From Escherichia coli (GTDB taxonomy: Bacteria; Pseudomonadota; Gammaproteobacteria; Enterobacterales; Enterobacteriaceae): a stretch of 64,000 nucleotides of DNA. The position numbers and the translations under genes are program-made. The notes beneath the pieces were generated by a model. The model had not been told where the DNA came from and ran no database searches. It worked only from the letters and a program-made list of their open reading frames with translations. Below, piece by piece: positions 2,624-50,401 of the stretch. Position 1 is the first letter of the stretch. Each line of letters starts with the position of its first letter. The stretch lies in the NCBI RefSeq assembly GCF_048403405.1, contig NZ_CP183129.1; one strand, given 5' to 3'.

Positions 2624-2659
2624 CAATAAAAAAGGCCCCCCGATTTGGGAGGCCTTATT
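2624..2659 (-). promoter_or_regulatory. pheA attenuator terminator hairpin (AGGCCTCCC...GGGGGGCCT followed by U-run) between pheL and pheA
   Basis: GC-rich inverted repeat with T-run on the minus strand, placed between leader peptide ORF and pheA start. Confidence 0.7.
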
Positions 2660-2702
2660 GTTCGTCTTCGCATTCTGTTTCACACGACGAAACGCCTCCC
2701 AT

Positions 2703-2750
2703 TCAGGGGAAGGTAAAAAAGAATGCGAAGAAAAACGGTGTGTGTTTCAT
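2703..2750 (-). CDS. pheL: pheA leader peptide, 15 aa, [15 protein letters not shown] (7 Phe codons)
   Basis: Minus-strand ATGAAACACACACCGTTTTTCTTCGCATTCTTTTTTACCTTCCCCTGA read directly; too short for the ORF track. Confidence 0.85.
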   Translation of the reverse strand: [15 protein letters not shown]

Positions 2751-2804
2751 GTTTGTTTCCTTAAGTGACTTCAGTACAGTACCCGTACTGTTTTCACGCT
2801 GTCA

Positions 2805-6046: not shown

Positions 6047-6108
6047 CCTAAAGAATCAAGACGATCCGGTACGCGTGATTTTCTTTTCACATTAATCTGG
6101 TCAATAAC

Positions 6109-6136
6109 CTTGAATAATTGAGGGATGACCTCATTT
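6109..6136 (+). promoter_or_regulatory. Candidate sigma-32 heat-shock promoter of clpB (-35 CTTGAA, -10-like GACCTCATTTA)
   Basis: Match to sigma-32 consensus CTTGAAA / CCCCATnT upstream of clpB; clpB is a known heat-shock gene. Confidence 0.5.
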
Positions 6137-6175
6137 AATCTCCAGTAGCAACTTTGATCCGTTATGGGAGGAGTT

Positions 6176-8749
6176 ATGCGTCTGGATCGTCTTACTAATA
6201 AATTCCAGCTTGCTCTTGCCGATGCCCAATCACTTGCACTCGGGCACGACAACCAATTCATCGAACCACTTCATTTAATGAGCGCCCTGCTGAATCAGGA
6301 AGGGGGTTCGGTTAGTCCTTTATTAACATCCGCTGGCATTAATGCTGGCCAGTTGCGCACAGATATCAATCAGGCATTAAATCGTTTACCGCAGGTTGAA
6401 GGTACTGGTGGTGATGTCCAGCCATCACAGGATCTGGTGCGCGTTCTTAATCTTTGCGACAAGCTGGCGCAAAAACGTGGTGATAACTTTATCTCGTCAG
6501 AACTGTTCGTTCTGGCGGCACTTGAGTCTCGCGGCACGCTGGCCGACATCCTGAAAGCAGCAGGGGCGACCACCGCCAACATTACTCAAGCGATTGAACA
6601 AATGCGTGGAGGTGAAAGCGTGAACGATCAAGGTGCTGAAGACCAACGTCAGGCTTTGAAAAAATATACCATCGACCTTACCGAACGAGCCGAACAAGGC
6701 AAACTTGATCCGGTGATTGGTCGTGATGAAGAAATTCGCCGTACCATTCAGGTACTGCAACGTCGTACTAAAAATAACCCGGTACTGATTGGTGAACCAG
6801 GCGTCGGTAAAACTGCCATCGTTGAAGGTCTGGCGCAGCGTATTATCAACGGCGAAGTGCCGGAAGGGTTGAAAGGCCGCCGCGTACTGGCGCTGGATAT
6901 GGGCGCGCTGGTGGCTGGGGCGAAATATCGCGGTGAGTTTGAAGAACGTTTAAAAGGCGTGCTTAACGATCTTGCCAAACAGGAAGGCAACGTCATCCTG
7001 TTTATCGACGAATTACATACCATGGTCGGCGCGGGTAAAGCCGATGGCGCAATGGACGCCGGAAACATGCTGAAACCGGCGCTGGCGCGTGGTGAATTGC
7101 ACTGCGTAGGTGCCACGACGCTTGACGAATATCGCCAGTACATCGAAAAAGATGCTGCGCTGGAACGTCGTTTCCAGAAAGTGTTTGTTGCCGAGCCTTC
7201 TGTTGAAGACACCATTGCTATTCTGCGTGGCTTAAAAGAACGTTACGAACTGCACCACCATGTGCAAATTACTGACCCGGCAATTGTTGCAGCGGCGACG
7301 TTGTCTCATCGCTACATTGCTGACCGTCAGCTGCCGGATAAAGCCATCGACCTGATCGATGAAGCAGCATCCAGCATTCGTATGCAGATTGACTCAAAAC
7401 CAGAAGAACTCGACCGACTCGATCGTCGTATCATCCAGCTCAAACTGGAACAACAGGCGTTAATGAAAGAGTCTGATGAAGCCAGTAAAAAACGCCTGGA
7501 TATGCTCAACGAAGAACTGAGCGACAAAGAACGTCAGTACTCCGAGTTAGAAGAAGAGTGGAAAGCAGAGAAAGCATCGCTTTCTGGTACACAGACCATT
7601 AAAGCGGAACTGGAACAGGCGAAAATCGCTATTGAACAGGCTCGCCGTGTGGGTGACCTGGCGCGGATGTCTGAACTGCAATACGGCAAAATCCCGGAAC
7701 TGGAAAAGCAACTGGAAGCCGCAACGCAGCTCGAAGGCAAAACTATGCGTCTGTTGCGTAATAAAGTGACCGACGCCGAAATTGCTGAAGTGCTGGCGCG
7801 TTGGACGGGGATTCCGGTTTCTCGCATGATGGAAAGCGAGCGCGAAAAACTGCTGCGTATGGAGCAAGAGCTGCACCATCGCGTTATTGGTCAGAACGAA
7901 GCGGTTGATGCGGTATCTAACGCTATTCGTCGTAGCCGTGCGGGGCTGGCGGATCCAAATCGCCCGATTGGTTCATTCCTGTTCCTCGGCCCAACGGGTG
8001 TGGGGAAAACTGAGCTTTGTAAGGCGCTGGCGAACTTTATGTTTGATAGCGACGAGGCGATGGTCCGTATCGATATGTCCGAGTTTATGGAGAAACATTC
8101 GGTGTCTCGTCTGGTTGGTGCGCCTCCGGGATATGTTGGTTATGAAGAAGGTGGCTACCTGACCGAAGCTGTGCGTCGTCGTCCGTATTCCGTTATCCTG
8201 CTGGATGAAGTGGAAAAAGCGCATCCGGATGTCTTCAACATTCTGTTGCAGGTACTGGATGATGGGCGTCTGACTGACGGGCAGGGGAGAACGGTCGACT
8301 TCCGTAATACGGTTGTCATTATGACCTCTAACCTCGGTTCCGATTTGATTCAGGAACGCTTCGGTGAACTGGATTATGCGCACATGAAAGAGCTGGTGCT
8401 CGGTGTGGTAAGCCATAACTTCCGTCCGGAATTCATTAACCGTATTGATGAAGTGGTGGTCTTCCATCCGCTGGGTGAACAGCACATTGCCTCGATTGCG
8501 CAGATTCAGTTGAAACGTCTGTACAAACGTCTGGAAGAACGTGGTTATGAAATCCACATTTCTGACGAGGCGCTGAAACTGCTGAGCGAGAACGGTTACG
8601 ATCCGGTCTATGGCGCACGTCCTCTGAAACGTGCAATTCAGCAGCAGATTGAAAACCCGCTGGCACAGCAAATACTGTCTGGTGAATTGGTTCCGGGTAA
8701 AGTGATTCGCCTGGAAGTTAATGAAGACCGGATTGTCGCCGTCCAGTAA
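6176..8749 (+). CDS. clpB: Disaggregase chaperone ClpB (Hsp100, two AAA+ modules), 857 aa
   Basis: ORF track 6164..8749; start moved to ATG 6176 ([10 protein letters not shown]) with GGGAGGAG SD upstream; two Walker A motifs GEPGVGKT and GPTGVGKT. Confidence 0.95.
6606..6622 (+). other. Internal translation start inside clpB (SD-like GGAGGTGA then GTG codon 149) producing N-terminally truncated ClpB
   Basis: In-frame GTG at 6620..6622 preceded by GGAGGTGA; internal start at Val149 is established for E. coli ClpB. Confidence 0.6.
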
Positions 8750-9192: not shown

Positions 9193-10734
<1,542 letters not shown>

Positions 10735-10819
10735 CCTTAAAGAACTGTGCTTTGCAGTGCTCACACAGATTGTCTGATAGAAAGTGAAAAGCAAGGCGTC
10801 TTGCGAAGCAGACTGATAC

Positions 10820-10895
10820 GTCCCCTTCGTCTAGAGGCCCAGGACACCGCCCTTTCACGGCGGTAACAGGGGTTCGAATCCCCTAGGGGACGCCA
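10820..10895 (+). tRNA. gltW: tRNA-Glu (spacer tRNA, 76 nt with encoded CCA)
   Basis: GTCCCCTTCGTCTAGAGGCCCAGGACACCGCCCTTTCACGGCGGTAACAGGGGTTCGAATCCCCTAGGGGACGCCA read directly. Confidence 0.95.
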
Positions 10896-11088
10896 CTTGC
10901 TGGTTTGTGAGTGAAAGTCGCCGACCTTAATATCTCAAAACTCATCTTCGGGTGATGTTTGAGATATTTGCTCTTTAAAAATCTGGATCAAGCTGAAAAT
11001 TGAAACACTGAACAACGAAAGTTGTTCGTGAGTCTCTCAAATTTTCGCAACACGATGATGGATCGAAAGAAACATCTTCGGGTTGTGA

Positions 11089-13992
<2,904 letters not shown>

Positions 13993-14085
13993 ACAACGCC
14001 GAAGATGTTTTGGCGGATTGAGAGAAGATTTTCAGCCTGATACAGATTAAATCAGAACGCAGAAGCGGTCTGATGAAACAGAATT

Positions 14086-14205
14086 TGCCTGGCGGCCTTA
14101 GCGCGGTGGTCCCACCTGATCCCATGCCGAACTCAGAAGTGAAACGCCGTAGCGCCGATGGTAGTGTGGGGTCTCCCCATGCGAGAGTAGGGAACTGCCA
14201 GGCAT
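14086..14205 (+). rRNA. rrfG: 5S ribosomal RNA (120 nt)
   Basis: TGCCTGGCGGCC...CTGCCAGGCAT read directly. Confidence 0.96.
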
Positions 14206-22579: not shown

Positions 22580-22999
22580 TTAAAGAGATTCGTTCAGCCA
22601 GCTATCAAACGGCGCTTTCGGTACTGCGCCATTAAGCATGTCGACAACCTGACCGTTTTTGAAAATCATGATCGTCGGTATACTACGAATTCCAAAGCGA
22701 CTGCTCAATTCACGTTCAGCTTCGGTATTCACTTTCACAAAGCGCACTTTACCGCTACGCTCTTGCGCGACATCTTCAAAAATTGGTGCGAAATTACGGC
22801 AGGGGCCGCACCACGGTGCCCAGAAGTCGATCACCACAGGTAGATCATCTTTCAGCAATTTGTCGAGCGTTTCACCGGTCGCATTAATCACCTCTCCGTC
22901 AAACAAGTCGTGACCGCAGCGTCCGCATTTTGCCGCATCTTCGATCCGATCGTCGGGAATGCGATTGATGGCCTGACAATGGGTACAAACGGTATTCAT
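22580..22999 (-). CDS. trxC: Thioredoxin 2 (N-terminal zinc-binding CxxC pairs plus WCGPC active site), 139 aa
   Basis: ORF 22580..22999 minus; CTHC, CGRC and WCGPC motifs. Confidence 0.93.
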
Positions 23000-23205
23000 A
23001 ACTAACCTCGGGATGAGTAAGGAGACTTATCGGCAACGACGCCGGTATGTTTCTAATATGTTACATATTATCGGGGACATTGTTCCAGACAACAATCTGT
23101 TTTATTCAATAGGTATGATAGTCGCAGGCTTTGGTACGAAATCATGGCGAACCGCGCGGACTTCGGGTAATCTGCGCGCTTCGCGCAGCGCTGGTGGAGA
23201 AAAGC

Positions 23206-24243
23206 ATGAACGATGAAATGAAAGGTAAAAGCGGCAAGGTCAAAGTGATGTATGTCCGCAGTGATGATGATTCTGATAAACGTACCCACAACCCGCGTAC
23301 CGGGAAAGGGGGCGGGCGTCCAGGAAAATCTCGTGCTGACGGTGGCCGTCGCCCCGCCCGCGATGACAAACAGAGTCACCCCCGTGACCGCAAGTGGGAA
23401 GATTCGCCGTGGCGCACGGTTTCCCGCGCGCCGGGTGATGAGACGCCGGAAAAGGCCGATCACGGTGGCATCAGTGGTAAAAGTTTTATTGATCCGGAAG
23501 TTTTGCGTCGTCAGCGTGCGGAAGAAACCCGCGTCTACGGCGAAAACGCCTGTCAGGCACTGTTCCAGAGCCGTCCGGAAGCGATTGTTCGCGCCTGGTT
23601 TATCCAGAGTGTAACGCCGCGTTTTAAAGAAGCCTTGCGCTGGATGGCAGCAAACCGCAAAGCGTACCATGTGGTAGATGAAGCGGAACTGACAAAAGCG
23701 TCAGGCACGGAACATCACGGCGGCGTTTGCTTCCTGATCAAAAAGCGTAATGGTACAACCGTGCAGCAGTGGGTAAGCCAGGCAGGCGCGCAGGATTGTG
23801 TACTGGCGCTGGAAAACGAATCTAACCCGCATAACCTGGGTGGCATGATGCGCAGCTGTGCGCACTTCGGCGTGAAAGGCGTTGTGGTGCAGGATGCGGC
23901 ACTGCTGGAGTCGGGTGCGGCTATCCGTACCGCAGAAGGCGGCGCAGAGCACGTTCAGCCGATTACTGGCGACAACATTGTTAACGTGCTGGATGATTTC
24001 CGTCAGGCGGGTTACACCGTAGTGACCACTTCCAGCGAGCAGGGTAAACCGCTGTTCAAAACCAGTCTGCCAGCGAAAATGGTACTGGTGCTGGGTCAGG
24101 AATATGAAGGGTTACCGGATGCCGCACGCGATCCAAACGATCTGCGCGTGAAGATTGACGGTACTGGCAACGTTGCCGGGCTAAATATCTCTGTCGCAAC
24201 TGGCGTTTTGCTTGGTGAATGGTGGCGTCAGAATAAAGCCTGA
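23206..24243 (+). CDS. yfiF: SpoU/TrmH-family RNA methyltransferase with Lys/Arg/Gly-rich N-terminal extension, 345 aa
   Basis: ORF track 23131..24243; start moved to ATG 23206 ([11 protein letters not shown]); translation. Confidence 0.88.
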
Positions 24244-24290
24244 TAAATCAGCCGGGTGGCAACGCTGCCACCCGGCGTTTTCCTGCAAAT

Positions 24291-32803: not shown

Positions 32804-33759
32804 TGAAGCAACTTTGGTTTGCCATGTCATTAGTGACAGGTAGCCTGTTATTCTCTGCTAACGCCTCGGCCACTCCCGCGTCCGGGGCGTTATTACAGCA
32901 GATGAACCTGGCCAGTCAGTCACTGAATTACGAGCTGTCATTCATCAGCATCAATAAACAGGGTGTTGAGTCTCTGCGTTATCGACATGCACGCCTCGAT
33001 AACCGTCCTCTTGCACAATTGTTGCAAATGGATGGCCCGCGCCGGGAAGTGGTACAGCGCGGCAATGAAATCAGCTATTTTGAACCGGGACTTGAACCGT
33101 TCACGCTTAATGGCGATTACATTGTTGATTCTCTACCATCGCTCATCTATACCGATTTCAAACGCCTTTCTCCTTACTACGACTTTATCTCCGTCGGGCG
33201 CACGCGTATTGCTGATCGTCTTTGCGAAGTCATTCGTGTGGTTGCCCGAGATGGTACACGCTACAGCTACATCGTGTGGATGGACACCGAATCGAAATTA
33301 CCGATGCGGGTTGATCTCCTTGATCGCGATGGTGAAACGCTGGAACAATTTCGCGTGATTGCTTTTAATGTCAATCAGGATATCAGCAGCAGTATGCAGA
33401 CGTTGGCGAAGGCAAATTTGCCGCCGTTGCTTTCTGTTCCTGTAGGTGAAAAAGCTAAATTCAGCTGGACGCCAACCTGGTTGCCACAGGGTTTTAGCGA
33501 AGTTTCCAGTAGTCGACGTCCGCTACCGACGATGGACAACATGCCTATCGAATCACGTCTCTATTCCGACGGATTATTCAGCTTTTCGGTAAACGTTAAC
33601 CGCGCTACGCCATCGAGCACCGATCAGATGTTGCGCACCGGACGCAGAACCGTCAGTACAAGCGTACGTGATAACGCCGAAATCACCATTGTCGGTGAAC
33701 TGCCGCCGCAAACGGCGAAACGCATTGCCGAGAATATTAAGTTCGGGGCAGCGCAATGA
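32803..33759 (+). CDS. rseB: Sigma-E regulatory protein RseB (periplasmic), 318 aa
   Basis: ORF 32803..33759; signal peptide; start overlaps rseA stop (TAATG). Confidence 0.93.
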   Translation: MKQLWFAMSLVTGSLLFSANASATPASGALLQQMNLASQSLNYELSFISINKQGVESLRYRHARLDNRPLAQLLQMDGPRREVVQRGNEISYFEPGLEPFTLNGDYIVDSLPSLIYTDFKRLSPYYDFISVGRTRIADRLCEVIRVVARDGTRYSYIVWMDTESKLPMRVDLLDRDGETLEQFRVIAFNVNQDISSSMQTLAKANLPPLLSVPVGEKAKFSWTPTWLPQGFSEVSSSRRPLPTMDNMPIESRLYSDGLFSFSVNVNRATPSSTDQMLRTGRRTVSTSVRDNAEITIVGELPPQTAKRIAENIKFGAAQ

Positions 33760-34235
33760 TCAAAGAGTGGGCTACCGTCATCTCCTGGGAAAACGGGCAG
33801 GCGCTGGTTAGTTGTGATGTTAAAGCCTCATGCAGCAGCTGCGCTTCACGCGCCGGTTGCGGTAGCCGCGTGTTGAATAAACTTGGCCCGCAAACCACGC
33901 ATACCATTGTCGTACCCTGTGATGAGCCGTTAGTGCCGGGGCAAAAAGTAGAATTAGGAATCGCCGAAGGCAGCCTGCTTAGCTCCGCATTACTGGTTTA
34001 TATGTCGCCGTTGATGGGACTATTCCTCATCGCTTCACTATTTCAGCTACTCTTTGCTTCAGATATTGCAGCATTATGCGGTGCGATTCTCGGTGGCGTT
34101 GGTGGATTCCTGATTGCACGTGGCTGCTCTCGAAAGTTTGCTGCCCGGTCTGAATGGCAACCGATCATCTTAAGCGTGGCCTTGCCGCCTGGCCTTGTGC
34201 GATTTGAAACATCTTCGGAAGACGCGAGCCAGTGA
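33756..34235 (+). CDS. rseC: Sigma-E regulatory protein RseC, 159 aa
   Basis: ORF 33756..34235; overlaps rseB stop by 4 nt; membrane protein. Confidence 0.9.
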   Translation: MIKEWATVISWENGQALVSCDVKASCSSCASRAGCGSRVLNKLGPQTTHTIVVPCDEPLVPGQKVELGIAEGSLLSSALLVYMSPLMGLFLIASLFQLLFASDIAALCGAILGGVGGFLIARGCSRKFAARSEWQPIILSVALPPGLVRFETSSEDASQ

Positions 34236-34432
34236 TTTCACTGGCTTTGTTGCATTTTGCATAACAAATGCGAGGACGTTTCCAGATACCACAATCCATA
34301 CGGTATGAACATTTCCTCGCCTCAATGTTGTAGTGTAGAATGCGGCGTTTCTATTAATACAGACGTTAAGCTCAGAACAGCGACTTCTAAAAGCCTGGTT
34401 AACCGGGCATTAAGGCACAATAATCATACTTT

Positions 34433-36232
34433 ATGAAGAATATACGTAACTTTTCGATCATAGCTCACATTGACCACGGTAAATCGACGCTGTCTGACCG
34501 TATTATCCAGATCTGCGGTGGCCTGTCTGACCGTGAAATGGAGGCGCAGGTTCTCGATTCCATGGATCTTGAGCGTGAGCGTGGCATTACCATCAAAGCG
34601 CAAAGCGTGACGCTGGACTACAAAGCGTCTGACGGCGAAACCTATCAGCTTAACTTTATCGACACCCCGGGCCACGTTGACTTCTCTTATGAAGTTTCTC
34701 GTTCGCTGGCTGCCTGTGAAGGTGCATTGCTGGTGGTCGACGCCGGGCAGGGCGTAGAAGCGCAAACCCTGGCAAACTGCTACACCGCCATGGAAATGGA
34801 TCTCGAAGTGGTGCCGGTACTGAACAAGATTGACCTGCCGGCAGCCGATCCTGAACGCGTGGCGGAAGAAATTGAAGATATTGTCGGCATCGACGCCACC
34901 GACGCGGTGCGCTGTTCAGCGAAAACCGGCGTTGGCGTACAGGACGTTCTCGAACGTCTGGTGCGCGACATTCCGCCGCCGGAAGGCGATCCGGAAGGCC
35001 CGTTGCAGGCACTCATTATCGACTCCTGGTTCGACAACTACCTGGGCGTTGTTTCACTTATCCGTATTAAAAACGGCACCCTGCGTAAGGGCGACAAAGT
35101 GAAAGTCATGAGTACCGGGCAGACCTATAACGCCGACCGTCTGGGCATCTTCACGCCAAAACAGGTTGACCGTACTGAACTGAAATGCGGCGAAGTAGGC
35201 TGGCTGGTATGTGCGATTAAAGATATCCACGGCGCTCCAGTAGGCGATACCTTAACGCTGGCGCGTAATCCGGCAGAAAAGGCGCTGCCTGGCTTTAAGA
35301 AAGTCAAACCGCAGGTATACGCCGGTCTGTTCCCGGTAAGTTCCGACGACTATGAAGCCTTCCGTGATGCGCTGGGTAAACTCAGCCTGAACGATGCCTC
35401 ACTGTTCTATGAGCCGGAAAGCTCAAGCGCGCTGGGCTTTGGTTTCCGCTGCGGCTTCCTCGGTCTGCTGCACATGGAGATCATCCAGGAACGTCTGGAA
35501 CGTGAATACGATCTGGATCTGATTACCACTGCGCCGACCGTAGTGTATGAAGTTGAAACCACGTCAAGAGAAGTTATCTACGTCGACAGCCCATCCAAGC
35601 TGCCAGCGGTAAATAACATCTACGAACTGCGCGAGCCGATTGCAGAATGTCACATGCTGCTGCCGCAGGCATATCTCGGCAACGTTATTACGCTGTGCGT
35701 AGAAAAACGCGGCGTGCAGACCAATATGGTTTACCACGGTAATCAGGTGGCGCTGACGTACGAGATCCCGATGGCGGAAGTGGTGCTCGATTTCTTCGAT
35801 CGCCTGAAATCTACCTCGCGTGGTTATGCGTCTCTGGATTACAACTTCAAACGCTTCCAGGCGTCCGACATGGTACGTGTAGACGTATTAATCAACGGTG
35901 AACGTGTTGATGCGCTGGCGTTGATCACCCACCGTGATAATTCGCAAAACCGCGGTCGCGAGCTGGTGGAGAAGATGAAAGATCTAATCCCACGCCAGCA
36001 GTTTGATATCGCTATTCAGGCAGCGATTGGTACGCACATCATTGCGCGCTCCACCGTGAAACAGCTGCGTAAAAACGTACTGGCTAAATGTTATGGCGGC
36101 GATATCAGCCGTAAGAAAAAGCTGCTGCAGAAGCAGAAAGAAGGTAAGAAACGCATGAAGCAGATCGGTAACGTCGAGCTGCCGCAGGAAGCGTTCCTCG
36201 CCATTCTGCACGTCGGCAAAGACAACAAATAA
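34433..36232 (+). CDS. lepA: Elongation factor 4 (LepA) GTPase, 599 aa
   Basis: ORF 34433..36232; [10 protein letters not shown]1 motif and conserved C-terminus. Confidence 0.95.
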
Positions 36233-37269: not shown

Positions 37270-37367
37270 TATTTATGAGATAAATCTCCCGTGGCTAACG
37301 ACATCCCCCGTCGTTGTGTATAGAATATTCCCCCGAAGTTTAAGGTTGGCACCTCCAGGTTGCCACG

Positions 37368-37461
37368 GCACACGAAACAGCGTTGGTCCCCATATACCGG
37401 TAAACTGAAACTGCAGCGAAGCAGTTAGCAGAACCATGTATATCAGGTCTGTTTCGTGTGC
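37368..37461 (+). promoter_or_regulatory. rnc 5' leader long-range stem (GCACACGAAACAG pairs with CTGTTTCGTGTGC); candidate RNase III autoregulatory processing structure
   Basis: 13-nt perfect complementarity read directly; rnc leader cleavage by RNase III is established. Confidence 0.55.
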
Positions 37462-37464
37462 TGA

Positions 37465-39077
<1,613 letters not shown>

Positions 39078-40940: not shown

Positions 40941-40963
40941 AATAATACCGTTCTCTTTAAAAA

Positions 40964-41004
40964 GTAAAACCCCCGAACTGGTAAGGAACAGGGGGTTTAC
41001 TTTA
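40964..41004 (+). terminator. Intrinsic terminator after acpS (GTAAAACCCCC...GGGGGTTTAC plus T-rich tail)
   Basis: Inverted repeat read directly. Confidence 0.7.
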
Positions 41005-41359
41005 CAACTTTAATTTTGTGCAGCACGCACCCTCAACAAGAGCGATTATGGATCAGGGCGGTTATCTTTTACAAGCAACTTGCAATCTTTAGCATAAAAA
41101 CTCGAGCCTTTACGAAGAAAACAATATTGATGGAAAGATTAACGTGACCGCCAATTCGGAAGTACATTAAAATTGGCTTCGTTATTGGCGATTTTGCTGT
41201 GCTTTATACCATGCCACAGAATTCCCCCATTGAAACGAGTGGTGTCGTCAAAGCTCTGGTGTGGAGTGCAGCATGCACCCTCAATAACTCGCACGTTCAG
41301 TTTTGGGGAGATGTAAGGGCTAATCTGAACGGCTGCATTCCTTGTTTAAGGAAAAACGA

Positions 41360-50216: not shown

Positions 50217-50401
50217 AGTGGCTCATTCACCGACTTATGTCAGCCCCTTCGGGACGTGCTACATAAAATACGAATGACGCACAACAAGGTGCCTGCCGTC
50301 CAACTTCTGATATCAGCGTAGCTATATCAACCATCGGGCGAAACGTCGAGTTAGGCACCGCCTTATTCCATAACAAAGCCGGGTAATTCCCGGCTTTGTT
50401 G
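50217..50401 (+). ncRNA. glmY: Small regulatory RNA GlmY (controls glmS via GlmZ/RapZ)
   Basis: Begins AGTGGCTCATTCACCGACTTATGTCAGCCCCTTCGGGACG, ends at intrinsic terminator AAAGCCGGGTAATTCCCGGCTTTGTTGT; position between purL and glrK; ends approximate. Confidence 0.8.

Follow-up and report, generated by a model that had tools for sequence, protein, structure and literature searches.

The sequence around the start of yfiF in the analysed stretch of Escherichia coli DNA (the window, 64,000 nucleotides in all) is probably best explained as the 5' end of a gene for an RlmB paralogue with a genuine N-terminal tail, preceded by a conserved block that would control its expression. The new point is the conservation of this control region, and not the tail or the fold of the hairpin. 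The 45-nt block at the ribosome-binding site, which is kept throughout the order, and 14 synonymously quiet codons point to a tight, undescribed control of yfiF expression. The block with its hairpin is read as an expression-control region of yfiF, which represents a modest new lead. Neither the gene nor its tail is out of the ordinary, and both were already known; Tkaczuk et al. described the basic, disordered extension in YfiF orthologues in 2007 (PMC1829167).

Identity, folded core and start of YfiF

23206..24243, + strand: yfiF coding sequence from the list of open reading frames, 345 amino acids plus stop; candidate RlmB-paralogous RNA 2'-O-methyltransferase of the SPOUT/TrmH family
23533..23748, + strand: L30e-like RNA-binding domain (SpoU_sub_bind), residues 110-181; Pfam PF08032, E = 5.7e-15, pLDDT above 95
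23800..24213, + strand: SPOUT catalytic domain (SpoU_methylase), residues 199-336; Pfam PF00588, E = 1.1e-31, conserved N207/R216, E299 and N327
24251..24276, unstranded: terminator-like 11-bp hairpin from the terminator scan, common to the convergent genes yfiF and ung

The name yfiF, given to the gene in the first-pass annotation, agrees with both the equivalog profile and the annotation of E. coli. The product matches the NCBIfam YfiF equivalog NF008117 / PRK10864 with 667.1 bits against a cut-off of 267, residues 1-345 aligning to positions 1-344 of the 344-position profile, and of 5426 complete E. coli genomes, 5425 annotate it as yfiF; the K-12 counterpart is b2581. The assignment of the protein to the SpoU methyltransferases is likewise borne out by the matches to PF08032 and PF00588 and by an RlmB-like fold. 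The PF00588 match scores 110.3 bits (curated cut-off 29.7), and the motifs N-x-x-G-x-x-x-R, LG-E-G and the terminal N-x-S are present in an alignment of 128 homologues, in which N327 is fully conserved and N207, P208, H209, N210, G212, R216, G297, E299 and G302 almost so. The AlphaFold2 model has pLDDT >90 over residues 110-345. A Foldseek search with this model returned RlmB, RlmR, TsnR, AviRb and TrmH (E = 1e-20 to 1e-9), the alpha/beta fold being like that of solved SPOUT enzymes.

RlmB (YjfH, 1GZ0) is the best match by structure (Foldseek, E = 1e-20) and also by sequence (E = 2.7e-19, residues 108-342). The two proteins share the L30e-like SpoU_sub_bind domain, a SPOUT core with a knot that is predicted in YfiF, and the conserved catalytic motifs. 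Unlike RlmB, which has a known 23S Gm2251 target, YfiF has about 100 extra N-terminal residues. Its scores fall below the cut-offs of the RlmB equivalogs (117.8 against 160.15 for TIGR00186, and 92 against 366 for NF008386), and it is therefore taken as a paralogue of RlmB and not as RlmB itself. Judged by its sequence, YfiF is thus a paralogue of the 23S rRNA Gm2251 methyltransferase RlmB in which the predicted 2'-O-methyltransferase residues are intact. It has been described as a gammaproteobacterial duplicate of RlmB (Tkaczuk 2007, PMC1829167). The protein is restricted to Proteobacteria and is among the last SPOUT methyltransferases of E. coli still to be assigned a target; a search of the literature for its methylation target found none.

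Comparison across species places the start of yfiF translation at the ATG at 23206, upstream of the low-complexity region with which the protein opens, as the first-pass annotation had supposed. If the annotated start were wrong, translation would begin 3' of that region and the 'tail' would be an untranslated leader. Protein-level conservation and the kept reading frame contradict this. The amino acids of residues 1-52 and 67-109 are conserved although their codons vary synonymously. Across 81 species M1, D3, E4, K6 and K8-R18 are fixed or almost fixed, D3 and K6 varying synonymously, while the region 5' of the ATG is conserved at the DNA and not at the protein level. The frame survives every indel in 80 species, the lengths of the 80 orthologous coding sequences all being multiples of three despite indels in the linker, and the full-length equivalog model covers the tail as well as the domains. 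Inspection of the sequence near residues 95-110 found no ATG or GTG with a Shine-Dalgarno sequence. Nothing in favour of a wrong start was found; an in-frame AAGG-N6-ATG (M15, 23248) could act as a minor start within the gene, though one that would still precede the Gly/Arg region. A start downstream of the low-complexity region is considered extremely improbable.

The N-terminal extension

23206..23490, + strand: N-terminal extension, residues 1-95, predicted disordered, basic, with few hydrophobic residues (AlphaFold2 and composition)
23227..23277, + strand: motif 1, residues 8-24, near-invariant in alignments, core KV[KR][VI]MYVR kept in orthologues down to 40% identity
23302..23361, + strand: Gly/Arg-rich basic block, residues 33-52, whose amino acids are conserved while synonymous change is free
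23362..23403, + strand: variable-length Arg/Asp/Glu linker, residues 53-66, from the alignment of orthologues
23404..23487, + strand: motifs 2 and 3, residues 67-94, from alignments

Disorder prediction, which had been proposed as a check on the tail, found the first approximately 95 residues to be basic and predicted to be disordered, with pLDDT 44-53 as against above 95 in the domains. Over residues 1-90 the AlphaFold2 model, built on the 128-sequence alignment, contains no DSSP secondary structure, and order starts at the helix 97-106. Hydrophobic residues account for 14% of residues 1-109 versus 32% of the YfiF domains. The tail is only moderately basic: the net charge is +7 over the 109 residues, of which 25% are Lys or Arg, 18% acidic (Asp or Glu) and 12% Gly. 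Residues 1-109 searched alone have no relative in Pfam or PDB, and tandem repeats, sought in the tail-coding DNA, are absent in E. coli.

In the first-pass annotation this part of the protein was described as about 100 residues of low complexity, rich in Lys, Arg, Gly and Asp. The quoted peptides (KGKSGKVKV...) are indeed present in the open reading frame 23206..24243, but the tail contains invariant motifs and is therefore not merely of low complexity. A search of related loci ranked KVKVMYVR among the family's two most conserved peptides. In Enterobacter, Klebsiella and Cronobacter the linker 53-66 is lengthened by repeats of RKRDD, RD or RE. The tail is conserved as a modular region consisting of motif 1, the Gly/Arg block, the length-variable linker, and two invariant motifs leading into the first helix. 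This result is a confirmation with a finer map of motifs versus linker, and it shows which residues to mutate.

The tail had also been called unusual for an enzyme of this family. It is so with respect to RlmB, TrmH, TrmJ and TrmL, but less so with respect to the closest relatives of YfiF, 52 of 130 of which have an extension of at least 80 amino acids, mostly basic and poor in hydrophobic residues; the 130 are the closest 50%-cluster representatives with a complete core, a ranking that may favour tailed proteins. Basic extensions are also carried by mitochondrial MRM1 (Pet56), MRM3 (RNMTL1) and other eukaryotic COG0566B/C proteins, and the same tether logic is proposed for them and for YfiF. 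The MRM3-bearing mitoribosomal structures 7OI6 and 9HCD are among the Foldseek matches of the YfiF model, and MRM3 dimers are seen on late assembly intermediates of the mitoribosomal large subunit. However, the tails of MRM1 and MRM3 share no sequence similarity with that of YfiF, the eukaryotic extensions are partly organelle-targeting, and both enzymes act on defined rRNA targets. Basic disordered extensions of ribosomal proteins typically become ordered upon RNA binding. The YfiF tail resembles these extensions, and those of biogenesis factors, in being Lys/Arg/Gly-rich, predicted disordered and conserved in short segments, although this is an analogy only.

Full-length YfiF binds RNA in vivo, as detected by OOPS and iCLIP, the bound species including rRNA, tRNA and ncRNAs, and a growth defect was reported for the yfiF knockout (PMC11066096). 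The protein co-purifies with ribosomal proteins and rRNA-modification enzymes (PMC3384335) and is enriched with RNase E, DeaD, SrmB, RhlB and RluB particles (PMC13106914). Binding to RNA or to the ribosome, suggested for the tail in the first-pass annotation, may be due to the tail or to the L30e-like domain. By analogy with other tailed proteins, the tail would function as a flexible, electrostatically driven tether that raises affinity for a large RNA or a pre-ribosomal particle, its invariant motifs would fold when bound to a specific RNA or protein partner, and the linker 53-66 would only set the reach. We infer this role at slightly better than even confidence. The contrary view makes the tail a neutral or merely solubilising appendage without a specific role, and the hairpin and Chi octamer upstream chance features. 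It is very unlikely: the linker does drift in sequence and length, homologues carry similar basic tails that are very different in length and sequence, and, as described below, the hairpin is statistically ordinary and Chi is not conserved, but residues 8-24, 67-77 and 85-94 are invariant over 81 species, KVKVMYVR and an invariant P68 persist in relatives of 30-40% identity, and the leader is near-invariant.

The conserved block upstream of yfiF

23144..23151, + strand: second conserved block ATGGCGAA ([AG]T[GA]GC[TG][AT]A), at a constant spacing, free of indels, from GTAATCT in 70 distinct leaders
23159..23205, + strand: ultra-conserved block ACTTCGGGTAATCTGCGCGC...GGTGGAGAAAAGC directly 5' of the ATG, from the comparison of leaders
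23172..23188, + strand: hairpin CTGCGCG-CTT-CGCGCAG, perfect 7-bp stem and 3-nt loop, -10.4 kcal/mol alone
23190..23197, + strand: exact Chi octamer GCTGGTGG from the sequence scan, overlapping the Shine-Dalgarno
23196..23199, + strand: Shine-Dalgarno GGAG, 6 nt before the ATG 23206, conserved, predicted unpaired in the E. coli allele

The 45 nt before the yfiF ATG are 92-99% identical across 81 Enterobacteriaceae species. Column identity reaches 0.97-0.99 over 23166..23195 but is 0.63-0.68 where the same intergenic region is poorly conserved. The core of the block, GGTAATCT[T/G]CGCG, is invariant across the order Enterobacterales, and the block is likewise invariant in the protein-retrieved loci of Pectobacterium, Dickeya, Serratia, Yersinia, Pantoea, Providencia, Xenorhabdus and Sodalis.

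Within the block lies the inverted repeat noticed in the first-pass annotation, which is present as described, one base away from the 23171..23187 given there. In the E. coli leader this hairpin is the minimum free energy element. Taken simply as an inverted repeat or a fold it is unremarkable, whereas its conservation exceeds chance. The window contains 66 perfect 7-bp repeats with loops of 3-8 nt versus 26.6 +/- 6.3 in Markov-1 simulations, and 10 G+C-rich ones among them versus 2.8 +/- 1.7 simulated, while the 111-nt hairpin region folds no better than its shuffles (z = +0.86). Of the 81 Enterobacteriaceae sequences, 61 have the perfect 17-mer and a further 17 have it with one mismatch. The unit TTCGCGC occurs once in other families, twice in Enterobacteriaceae and three times in L165, and the hairpin arose by tandem duplication of this unit. 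No function was ascribed to it in the first-pass annotation; its importance is that of the conserved block around it. A function as terminator or attenuator was rejected, since the hairpin is followed by CGCTGGTGGAG, with no U tract, and it is absent from the output of the terminator scan.

The octamer next to the hairpin, previously described as Chi-like, is an exact Chi, GCTGGTGG. The window contains 12 copies of Chi versus 2.1 expected, 10 of them on the + strand, as is usual in E. coli. The position before yfiF holds Chi in 42 of 81 species and GCAGGTGG in 38, so the octamer is not conserved as Chi, and its conservation is due to its overlap with the Shine-Dalgarno sequence. The Chi beside yfiF is incidental.

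Several other explanations of the block were tried and rejected or found no support. Mimicry of 23S rRNA was considered for the pattern GUAAUC-N17-CUGGUGG, expected near G2251, but this pattern matches only the yfiF leader; the 23S gene of the window (11089..13992) reads GTTATC at that place, and blastn-short gave only 7-9-mers (E = 2-34), indicating a chance likeness. An eight-codon upstream open reading frame of fixed length, from ATG 23145 to TAA 23169, is interrupted by in-frame stops in Citrobacter R56, K. oxytoca and Yokenella, and many other leaders have GTA, ATA or ACC where it would start. A stem-loop within the variable spacer, convincing by eye in leaders of the Serratia and Rahnella types, has 36% canonical pairs in 116 sequences, which equals background, and alifold found no structure in the spacer among 116 distinct sequences. 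Long-range pairing between leader and coding sequence gave duplex energies equal to those of shuffles in most species. Readings as a sigma-54, sigma-32 or sigma-E promoter, a marbox or a CsrA site were set aside by eye only, the -12 GC, CCCCAT and GGA elements not being conserved.

Promoter and RNA-leader readings

23227..23268, + strand: codons 8-21, with almost no synonymous variation in 81 species

The preferred reading, adopted tentatively and at somewhat less than even confidence, takes the conserved block for a core promoter or operator. The promoter would consist of TGGCGA, a 17-bp spacer, TAATCT and then a G+C-rich discriminator, and the hairpin would be a by-product of the duplicated TTCGCGC unit. 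TGGCGA (23145..23150) and TAATCT (23168..23173) have the geometry of a -35 element, 17 bp and a -10 element, with spacing fixed in about 70 distinct leaders; the spacer between the two blocks is variable and without helical covariation, and the sequence between the block and the Shine-Dalgarno varies freely. Each putative hexamer fits the sigma-70 consensus at only 3 of 6 positions, and a consensus scan returned no promoter. Contacts with sigma do not account for twenty invariant bases in a row. Published TSS, Term-seq and sigma-factor supplements were searched for a yfiF transcription start site; those searched contained none and, apart from an orthologue table, yielded just a single Rho-dependent 3' end, antisense to yfiF at K-12 2,717,859.

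The stringent, DksA-sensitive promoters of the rrn P1 type have a G+C-rich discriminator. The yfiF region resembles them in its candidate -10 of the form TAnnnT followed by GCGC-rich sequence, in its 17-bp spacer, and in its link to ribosome biogenesis. It differs from them in the poor consensus fit of both hexamers and in a conservation that spans 20 contiguous bases.

It is also possible, though rather less probable, that the block is transcribed as a 5' leader and serves as a translational operator, in which the UCUUC tract and a G+C clamp control access to the Shine-Dalgarno sequence. The invariant single strand ACAUCRGGUAAUCUUC with the clamp would then pair with or free the Shine-Dalgarno, and YfiF itself (autoregulation) or another factor may bind. 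The duplicated TTCGCGC would give Enterobacteriaceae two mutually exclusive hairpins, CTGCGCG-CTT-CGCGCAG, which leaves the Shine-Dalgarno open, and an alternative which closes it. Consistent with this, a hairpin follows UCUUC on its 3' side in every lineage with differing stems (CGCGC/GCGCG, CGCC/GGCG, GCGC/GCGC, CUCC/GGAG), and in Sodalis a 12-bp helix covers both the Shine-Dalgarno and the start. RNAalifold of 16 sequences found a stem proximal to the Shine-Dalgarno in which both sides of five pairs have changed. At 23174, one G/T difference alone shifts the predicted probability of Shine-Dalgarno pairing from 0.04, in E. coli and other species with the G allele, to about 0.98 in species with the T allele such as Salmonella. 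However, this leaves the Shine-Dalgarno of the E. coli allele free, UCUUC and a purine-rich Shine-Dalgarno pair by default, the mean minimum free energy z against dinucleotide shuffles is only -0.8, the E. coli region is not unusually structured, and 18 lineage types give no consensus RNA structure. A search of 22900..23500 with Rfam covariance models produced only two chance-level matches (E = 2.9 and 5.5) and thus no Rfam family.

An element directly at the ribosome-binding site, with a pyrimidine tract that can pair with the Shine-Dalgarno, is reminiscent of fourU and ROSE thermometers and of autoregulated operators. Unlike leaders that sequester the Shine-Dalgarno, that of yfiF shows no consensus structure supported by covariation across the 18 lineage types. 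Binding of YfiF to its own mRNA was reported by iCLIP (PMC11066096), which would favour autoregulation, but the clone used there consisted of the ORF only in pBAD, so the signal cannot report on the native leader and was discounted as evidence of leader binding.

The leader reading also draws on codons 8-21. Their synonymous heterozygosity of 0.08, where the median for the gene is 0.41, is the smallest value among 221 windows along the gene, and none of 100,000 random draws was as low. The near absence of synonymous change suggests a constraint at the RNA level. A hairpin GCGG...CCGC within the coding sequence was rejected as its cause, support being weak and the pairing largely following from the Gly and Val-Arg codons. 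The constraint on these codons is explained by neither the promoter nor the RNA reading.

A bolder and rather unlikely proposal joins all of these elements. The block GGUAAUCU[U/G]CGCG, the hairpin and the frozen codons 8-21 would together form an undescribed, Enterobacterales-wide RNA operator at the start of yfiF, through which YfiF or another factor would tune YfiF synthesis, the G/T state of 23174 and the copy number of TTCGCGC setting whether the Shine-Dalgarno is open or closed.

YfiF as a paralogue of RlmB

The window derives from an E. coli chromosome, and a 1.27-kb query around the region of interest was matched in 5425 of 5426 complete E. coli genomes, with annotation as yfiF and trxC. 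The K-12 counterpart is b2581 ('putative methyltransferase YfiF'), a known gene for an orphan methyltransferase.

23206..24243, + strand: yfiF, 345 aa
22580..22999, - strand: trxC, divergent from yfiF across a 206-bp intergenic region
Residues 110-181 of YfiF: SpoU_sub_bind (Pfam)
Residues 199-336 of YfiF: SpoU_methylase (Pfam)

Because the NCBIfam YfiF equivalog is matched over residues 1-345 (667 bits) and both RlmB equivalogs score under their cut-offs, YfiF is a paralogue of RlmB and not RlmB itself; in the classification of Tkaczuk et al. 2007 (PMC1829167) it is an RlmB duplicate of the Gammaproteobacteria. Among PDB entries, RlmB (1GZ0) comes first both in sequence comparison (E = 2.7e-19, residues 108-342) and in structural comparison with an AlphaFold2 model of YfiF built with 128 homologues. 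The catalytic residues N207/R216, E299 and N327 are conserved.

OOPS has identified full-length YfiF as RNA-binding, iCLIP found it cross-linked to rRNA, tRNA, CsrB/C, ArrS, ChiX and the yfiF mRNA itself, and a yfiF knockout grows poorly (PMC11066096). The protein co-purifies with ribosomal proteins and rRNA-modification enzymes (PMC3384335) and is enriched in cross-linked particles together with RNase E, DeaD, SrmB, RhlB and RluB (PMC13106914). No paper found by literature search names its methylation target or assays the tail separately from the rest of YfiF.

Downstream, yfiF and ung are convergent, and the 11-bp G+C-rich hairpin between them (24251..24276) has T runs on either strand and resembles a bidirectional terminator. 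In a supplementary table that appears to hold bicyclomycin-sensitive (Rho-dependent) sites, Adams et al. 2021 (PMC7815308) list a 3' end that lies antisense to yfiF at K-12 position 2,717,859, + strand (window ~23875, - strand), consistent with termination of ung read-through transcription inside yfiF.

A basic tail predicted to be disordered

The first-pass annotation had described the N-terminus as an unusual, disordered basic extension. This interpretation is partly supported: the basic charge is borne out and disorder is predicted, and both had been published in 2007 (Tkaczuk et al., PMC1829167). In the AlphaFold2 model residues 1-90 have a pLDDT of 44-53 and lack secondary structure, with values above 90 from residue 97 onward. 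Lys+Arg make up 25% of residues 1-109, Asp+Glu 18% and Gly 12%, and hydrophobic residues only 14% versus 32% in the domains; the tail alone matched no Pfam family and no PDB chain.

As for rarity, the description holds when the comparison is with RlmB, TrmH, TrmJ and TrmL, but not inside the YfiF clade. When 1.84 billion cluster representatives were scanned with HMMER, 52 of the 130 complete-core homologues among the best 150 matches carried 80 or more residues ahead of the L30e-like domain, a ranking that may favour tailed proteins since the query included the tail. These extensions are mostly basic, hydrophobic-poor and up to 364 aa long; homologues P0127, P0140 and P0150 have basic extensions of 200-364 aa.

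A start codon downstream of the tail, which had been considered, is contradicted by protein-level conservation from M1: in 81 species M1, D3, E4, K6 and K8-R18 vary little or not at all, with synonymous changes in the D3 and K6 codons. Orthologue coding lengths range from 1035 to 1128 nt, every one a multiple of three, and conservation upstream of the ATG is at the DNA level, in no reading frame.

Judging from the alignments, the tail is modular rather than uniformly low in complexity.

Residues 8-24: near-invariant 17-residue motif
Residues 33-52: conserved Gly/Arg basic block
Residues 53-66 (23362..23403): linker of drifting sequence
Residues 67-77: invariant 11-residue motif
Residues 85-94: invariant 10-residue motif

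The core KV[KR][VI]MYVR of residues 8-24 persists in orthologues with 40-63% identity, Symbiopectobacterium and Sodalis among them, and P68 is retained even at 30-40% identity. In Enterobacter, Klebsiella and Cronobacter (orthologues P0055, P0097 and P0118) the linker is lengthened by in-frame repeats of RKRDD, RD or RE. With slight preference, we infer a mechanism in which the tail would be a flexible electrostatic tether that raises the capture of some large RNA or pre-ribosomal particle. Its invariant motifs would serve as short binding segments that become ordered on contact with a specific partner, and the linker would set the reach. MRM1, MRM3 and ribosomal-protein extensions would share this logic, and the structural comparison with the YfiF model also picked up MRM3 dimers bound to mitoribosome assembly intermediates.

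Hairpin, Chi octamer and codons 8-21

23172..23188: inverted repeat CTGCGCG-CTT-CGCGCAG, -10.4 kcal/mol in isolation
23173..23186: duplicated TTCGCGC units
23190..23197: exact Chi, GCTGGTGG
23196..23199: Shine-Dalgarno (SD) GGAG, 6 nt before the ATG, overlapped by Chi

The inverted repeat is real, having been placed one base too far left in the first-pass annotation, and the neighbouring octamer, noted there as Chi-like, proved to be an exact Chi. As a bare repeat the hairpin is not more than chance and is ordinary as a structure: the window holds 66 perfect inverted repeats of 7 bp with loops of 3-8 nt versus ~27 in Markov simulations, ten of them G+C-rich versus ~3 expected, and the fold of the 111-nt region is no more stable than those of dinucleotide shuffles (z = +0.86). 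A terminator role is ruled out because no U tract follows the stem. Chi occurs 12 times in the 64 kb, 10 on the + strand, an excess and orientation bias normal for E. coli. Across 81 Enterobacteriaceae sequences the site is Chi in 42 and GCAGGTGG in 38; thus the octamer is not kept as Chi, and its presence is incidental.

TTCGCGC is present as two tandem units in Enterobacteriaceae, one in other families (e.g. Pectobacteriaceae and Yersiniaceae leaders) and three in a metagenomic contig (VOFL01000128.1, 4224-4319; locus L165). The leader evolves by tandem copy-number change of the 7-mer, and the inverted repeat is a product of its duplication.

Codons 8-21 (23227..23268) have a synonymous heterozygosity of 0.08 versus a gene-wide median of 0.41 in 81 Enterobacteriaceae species, the lowest of 221 windows and unequalled in 100,000 random draws. 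Outside the family these codons vary synonymously, so the peptide motif is selected as protein; within Enterobacteriaceae a nucleotide-level constraint is superimposed. Neither a local hairpin nor pairing with the leader is a convincing cause. An AAGG-N6-ATG (M15) inside the segment is a candidate internal ribosome-binding site and a possible cause, and the iCLIP signal on the protein's own mRNA could map here.

The conserved block upstream of yfiF

What remains of interest is the initiation region of yfiF, whose very strong conservation is not annotated. In an alignment of 80 GTDB species, identity is 92-99% over 23160..23205 versus 63-68% in the poorly conserved part of the intergenic region. 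The core GGTAATCT[T/G]CGCG shows no variation in loci that were retrieved via the protein from Pectobacterium, Dickeya, Serratia, Yersinia, Pantoea, Providencia, Xenorhabdus, Symbiopectobacterium and Sodalis. A second block, [AG]T[GA]GC[TG][AT]A, keeps a strictly fixed distance to the core without indel in ~70 distinct leaders, and the variable spacer between them showed no helical covariation. The same leader is found, with a 75% identical Enterobacteriaceae-type yfiF locus, in a record titled Chryseobacterium sp. 18061 (CACSKA010000009.1), probably a contamination or mislabelling.

A promoter or operator is the preferred though tentative reading of the block. TGGCGA (23145..23150), 17 bp, TAATCT (23168..23173) and a G+C-rich discriminator have promoter geometry; each hexamer matches 3/6 consensus positions, and a consensus scan reported no promoter. 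No yfiF transcription start site was found in the published datasets searched.

An RNA leader, a somewhat doubtful alternative, would fit the ability of some hairpin to form downstream of the block in every lineage, despite variable sequence.

Serratia and Yersinia: CGCGC-CCU-GCGCG
Relative's locus L102: CGCC...GGCG
Xenorhabdus: GCGC-CAUA-GCGC
Relatives' loci L142 and L171: CUCC-N6-GGAG
Sodalis: 12-bp helix over SD and start

However, the lineage folds beat shuffles by only 0.8 SD on average and share no consensus structure across 18 lineage types, and the own-mRNA iCLIP signal, obtained with an ORF-only pBAD clone, says nothing on the native leader. Position 23174, the third base of the hairpin 5' arm, is G in 64/81 species, including E. 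coli, and T in 17/81; with G the hairpin is the MFE structure and the SD is predicted free (P paired ~0.04), while with T (e.g. Salmonella) pairing of the SD is predicted (P ~0.98). A function other than promoter, operator or RNA leader is unlikely.

Nearer trxC, conserved blocks in 23048..23125 comprise TGTTTC-N5-TGTTAC direct repeats at a distance of 11 bp, together with ATAG motifs around 23108..23121, which fit the published ArcA-P footprint and OxyR site of the trxC promoter (PMC3798270).

Elsewhere the window carries a complete rRNA operon (9193..14203) and Rfam matches at gathering score.

9193..10734: 16S
10820..10892: tRNA of the operon
11089..13992: 23S
14088..14203: 5S
2626..2751: Phe leader (Rfam)
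6057..6195: RyfD (Rfam)
33720..34551: AsrC, antisense of rseC (Rfam)
37335..37549: rncO (Rfam)
40961..41037: ohsC (Rfam)
50217..50364: GlmY (Rfam)

Around 13295 the 23S copy reads CCCGTTATCCGGG where GUAAUC had been expected.
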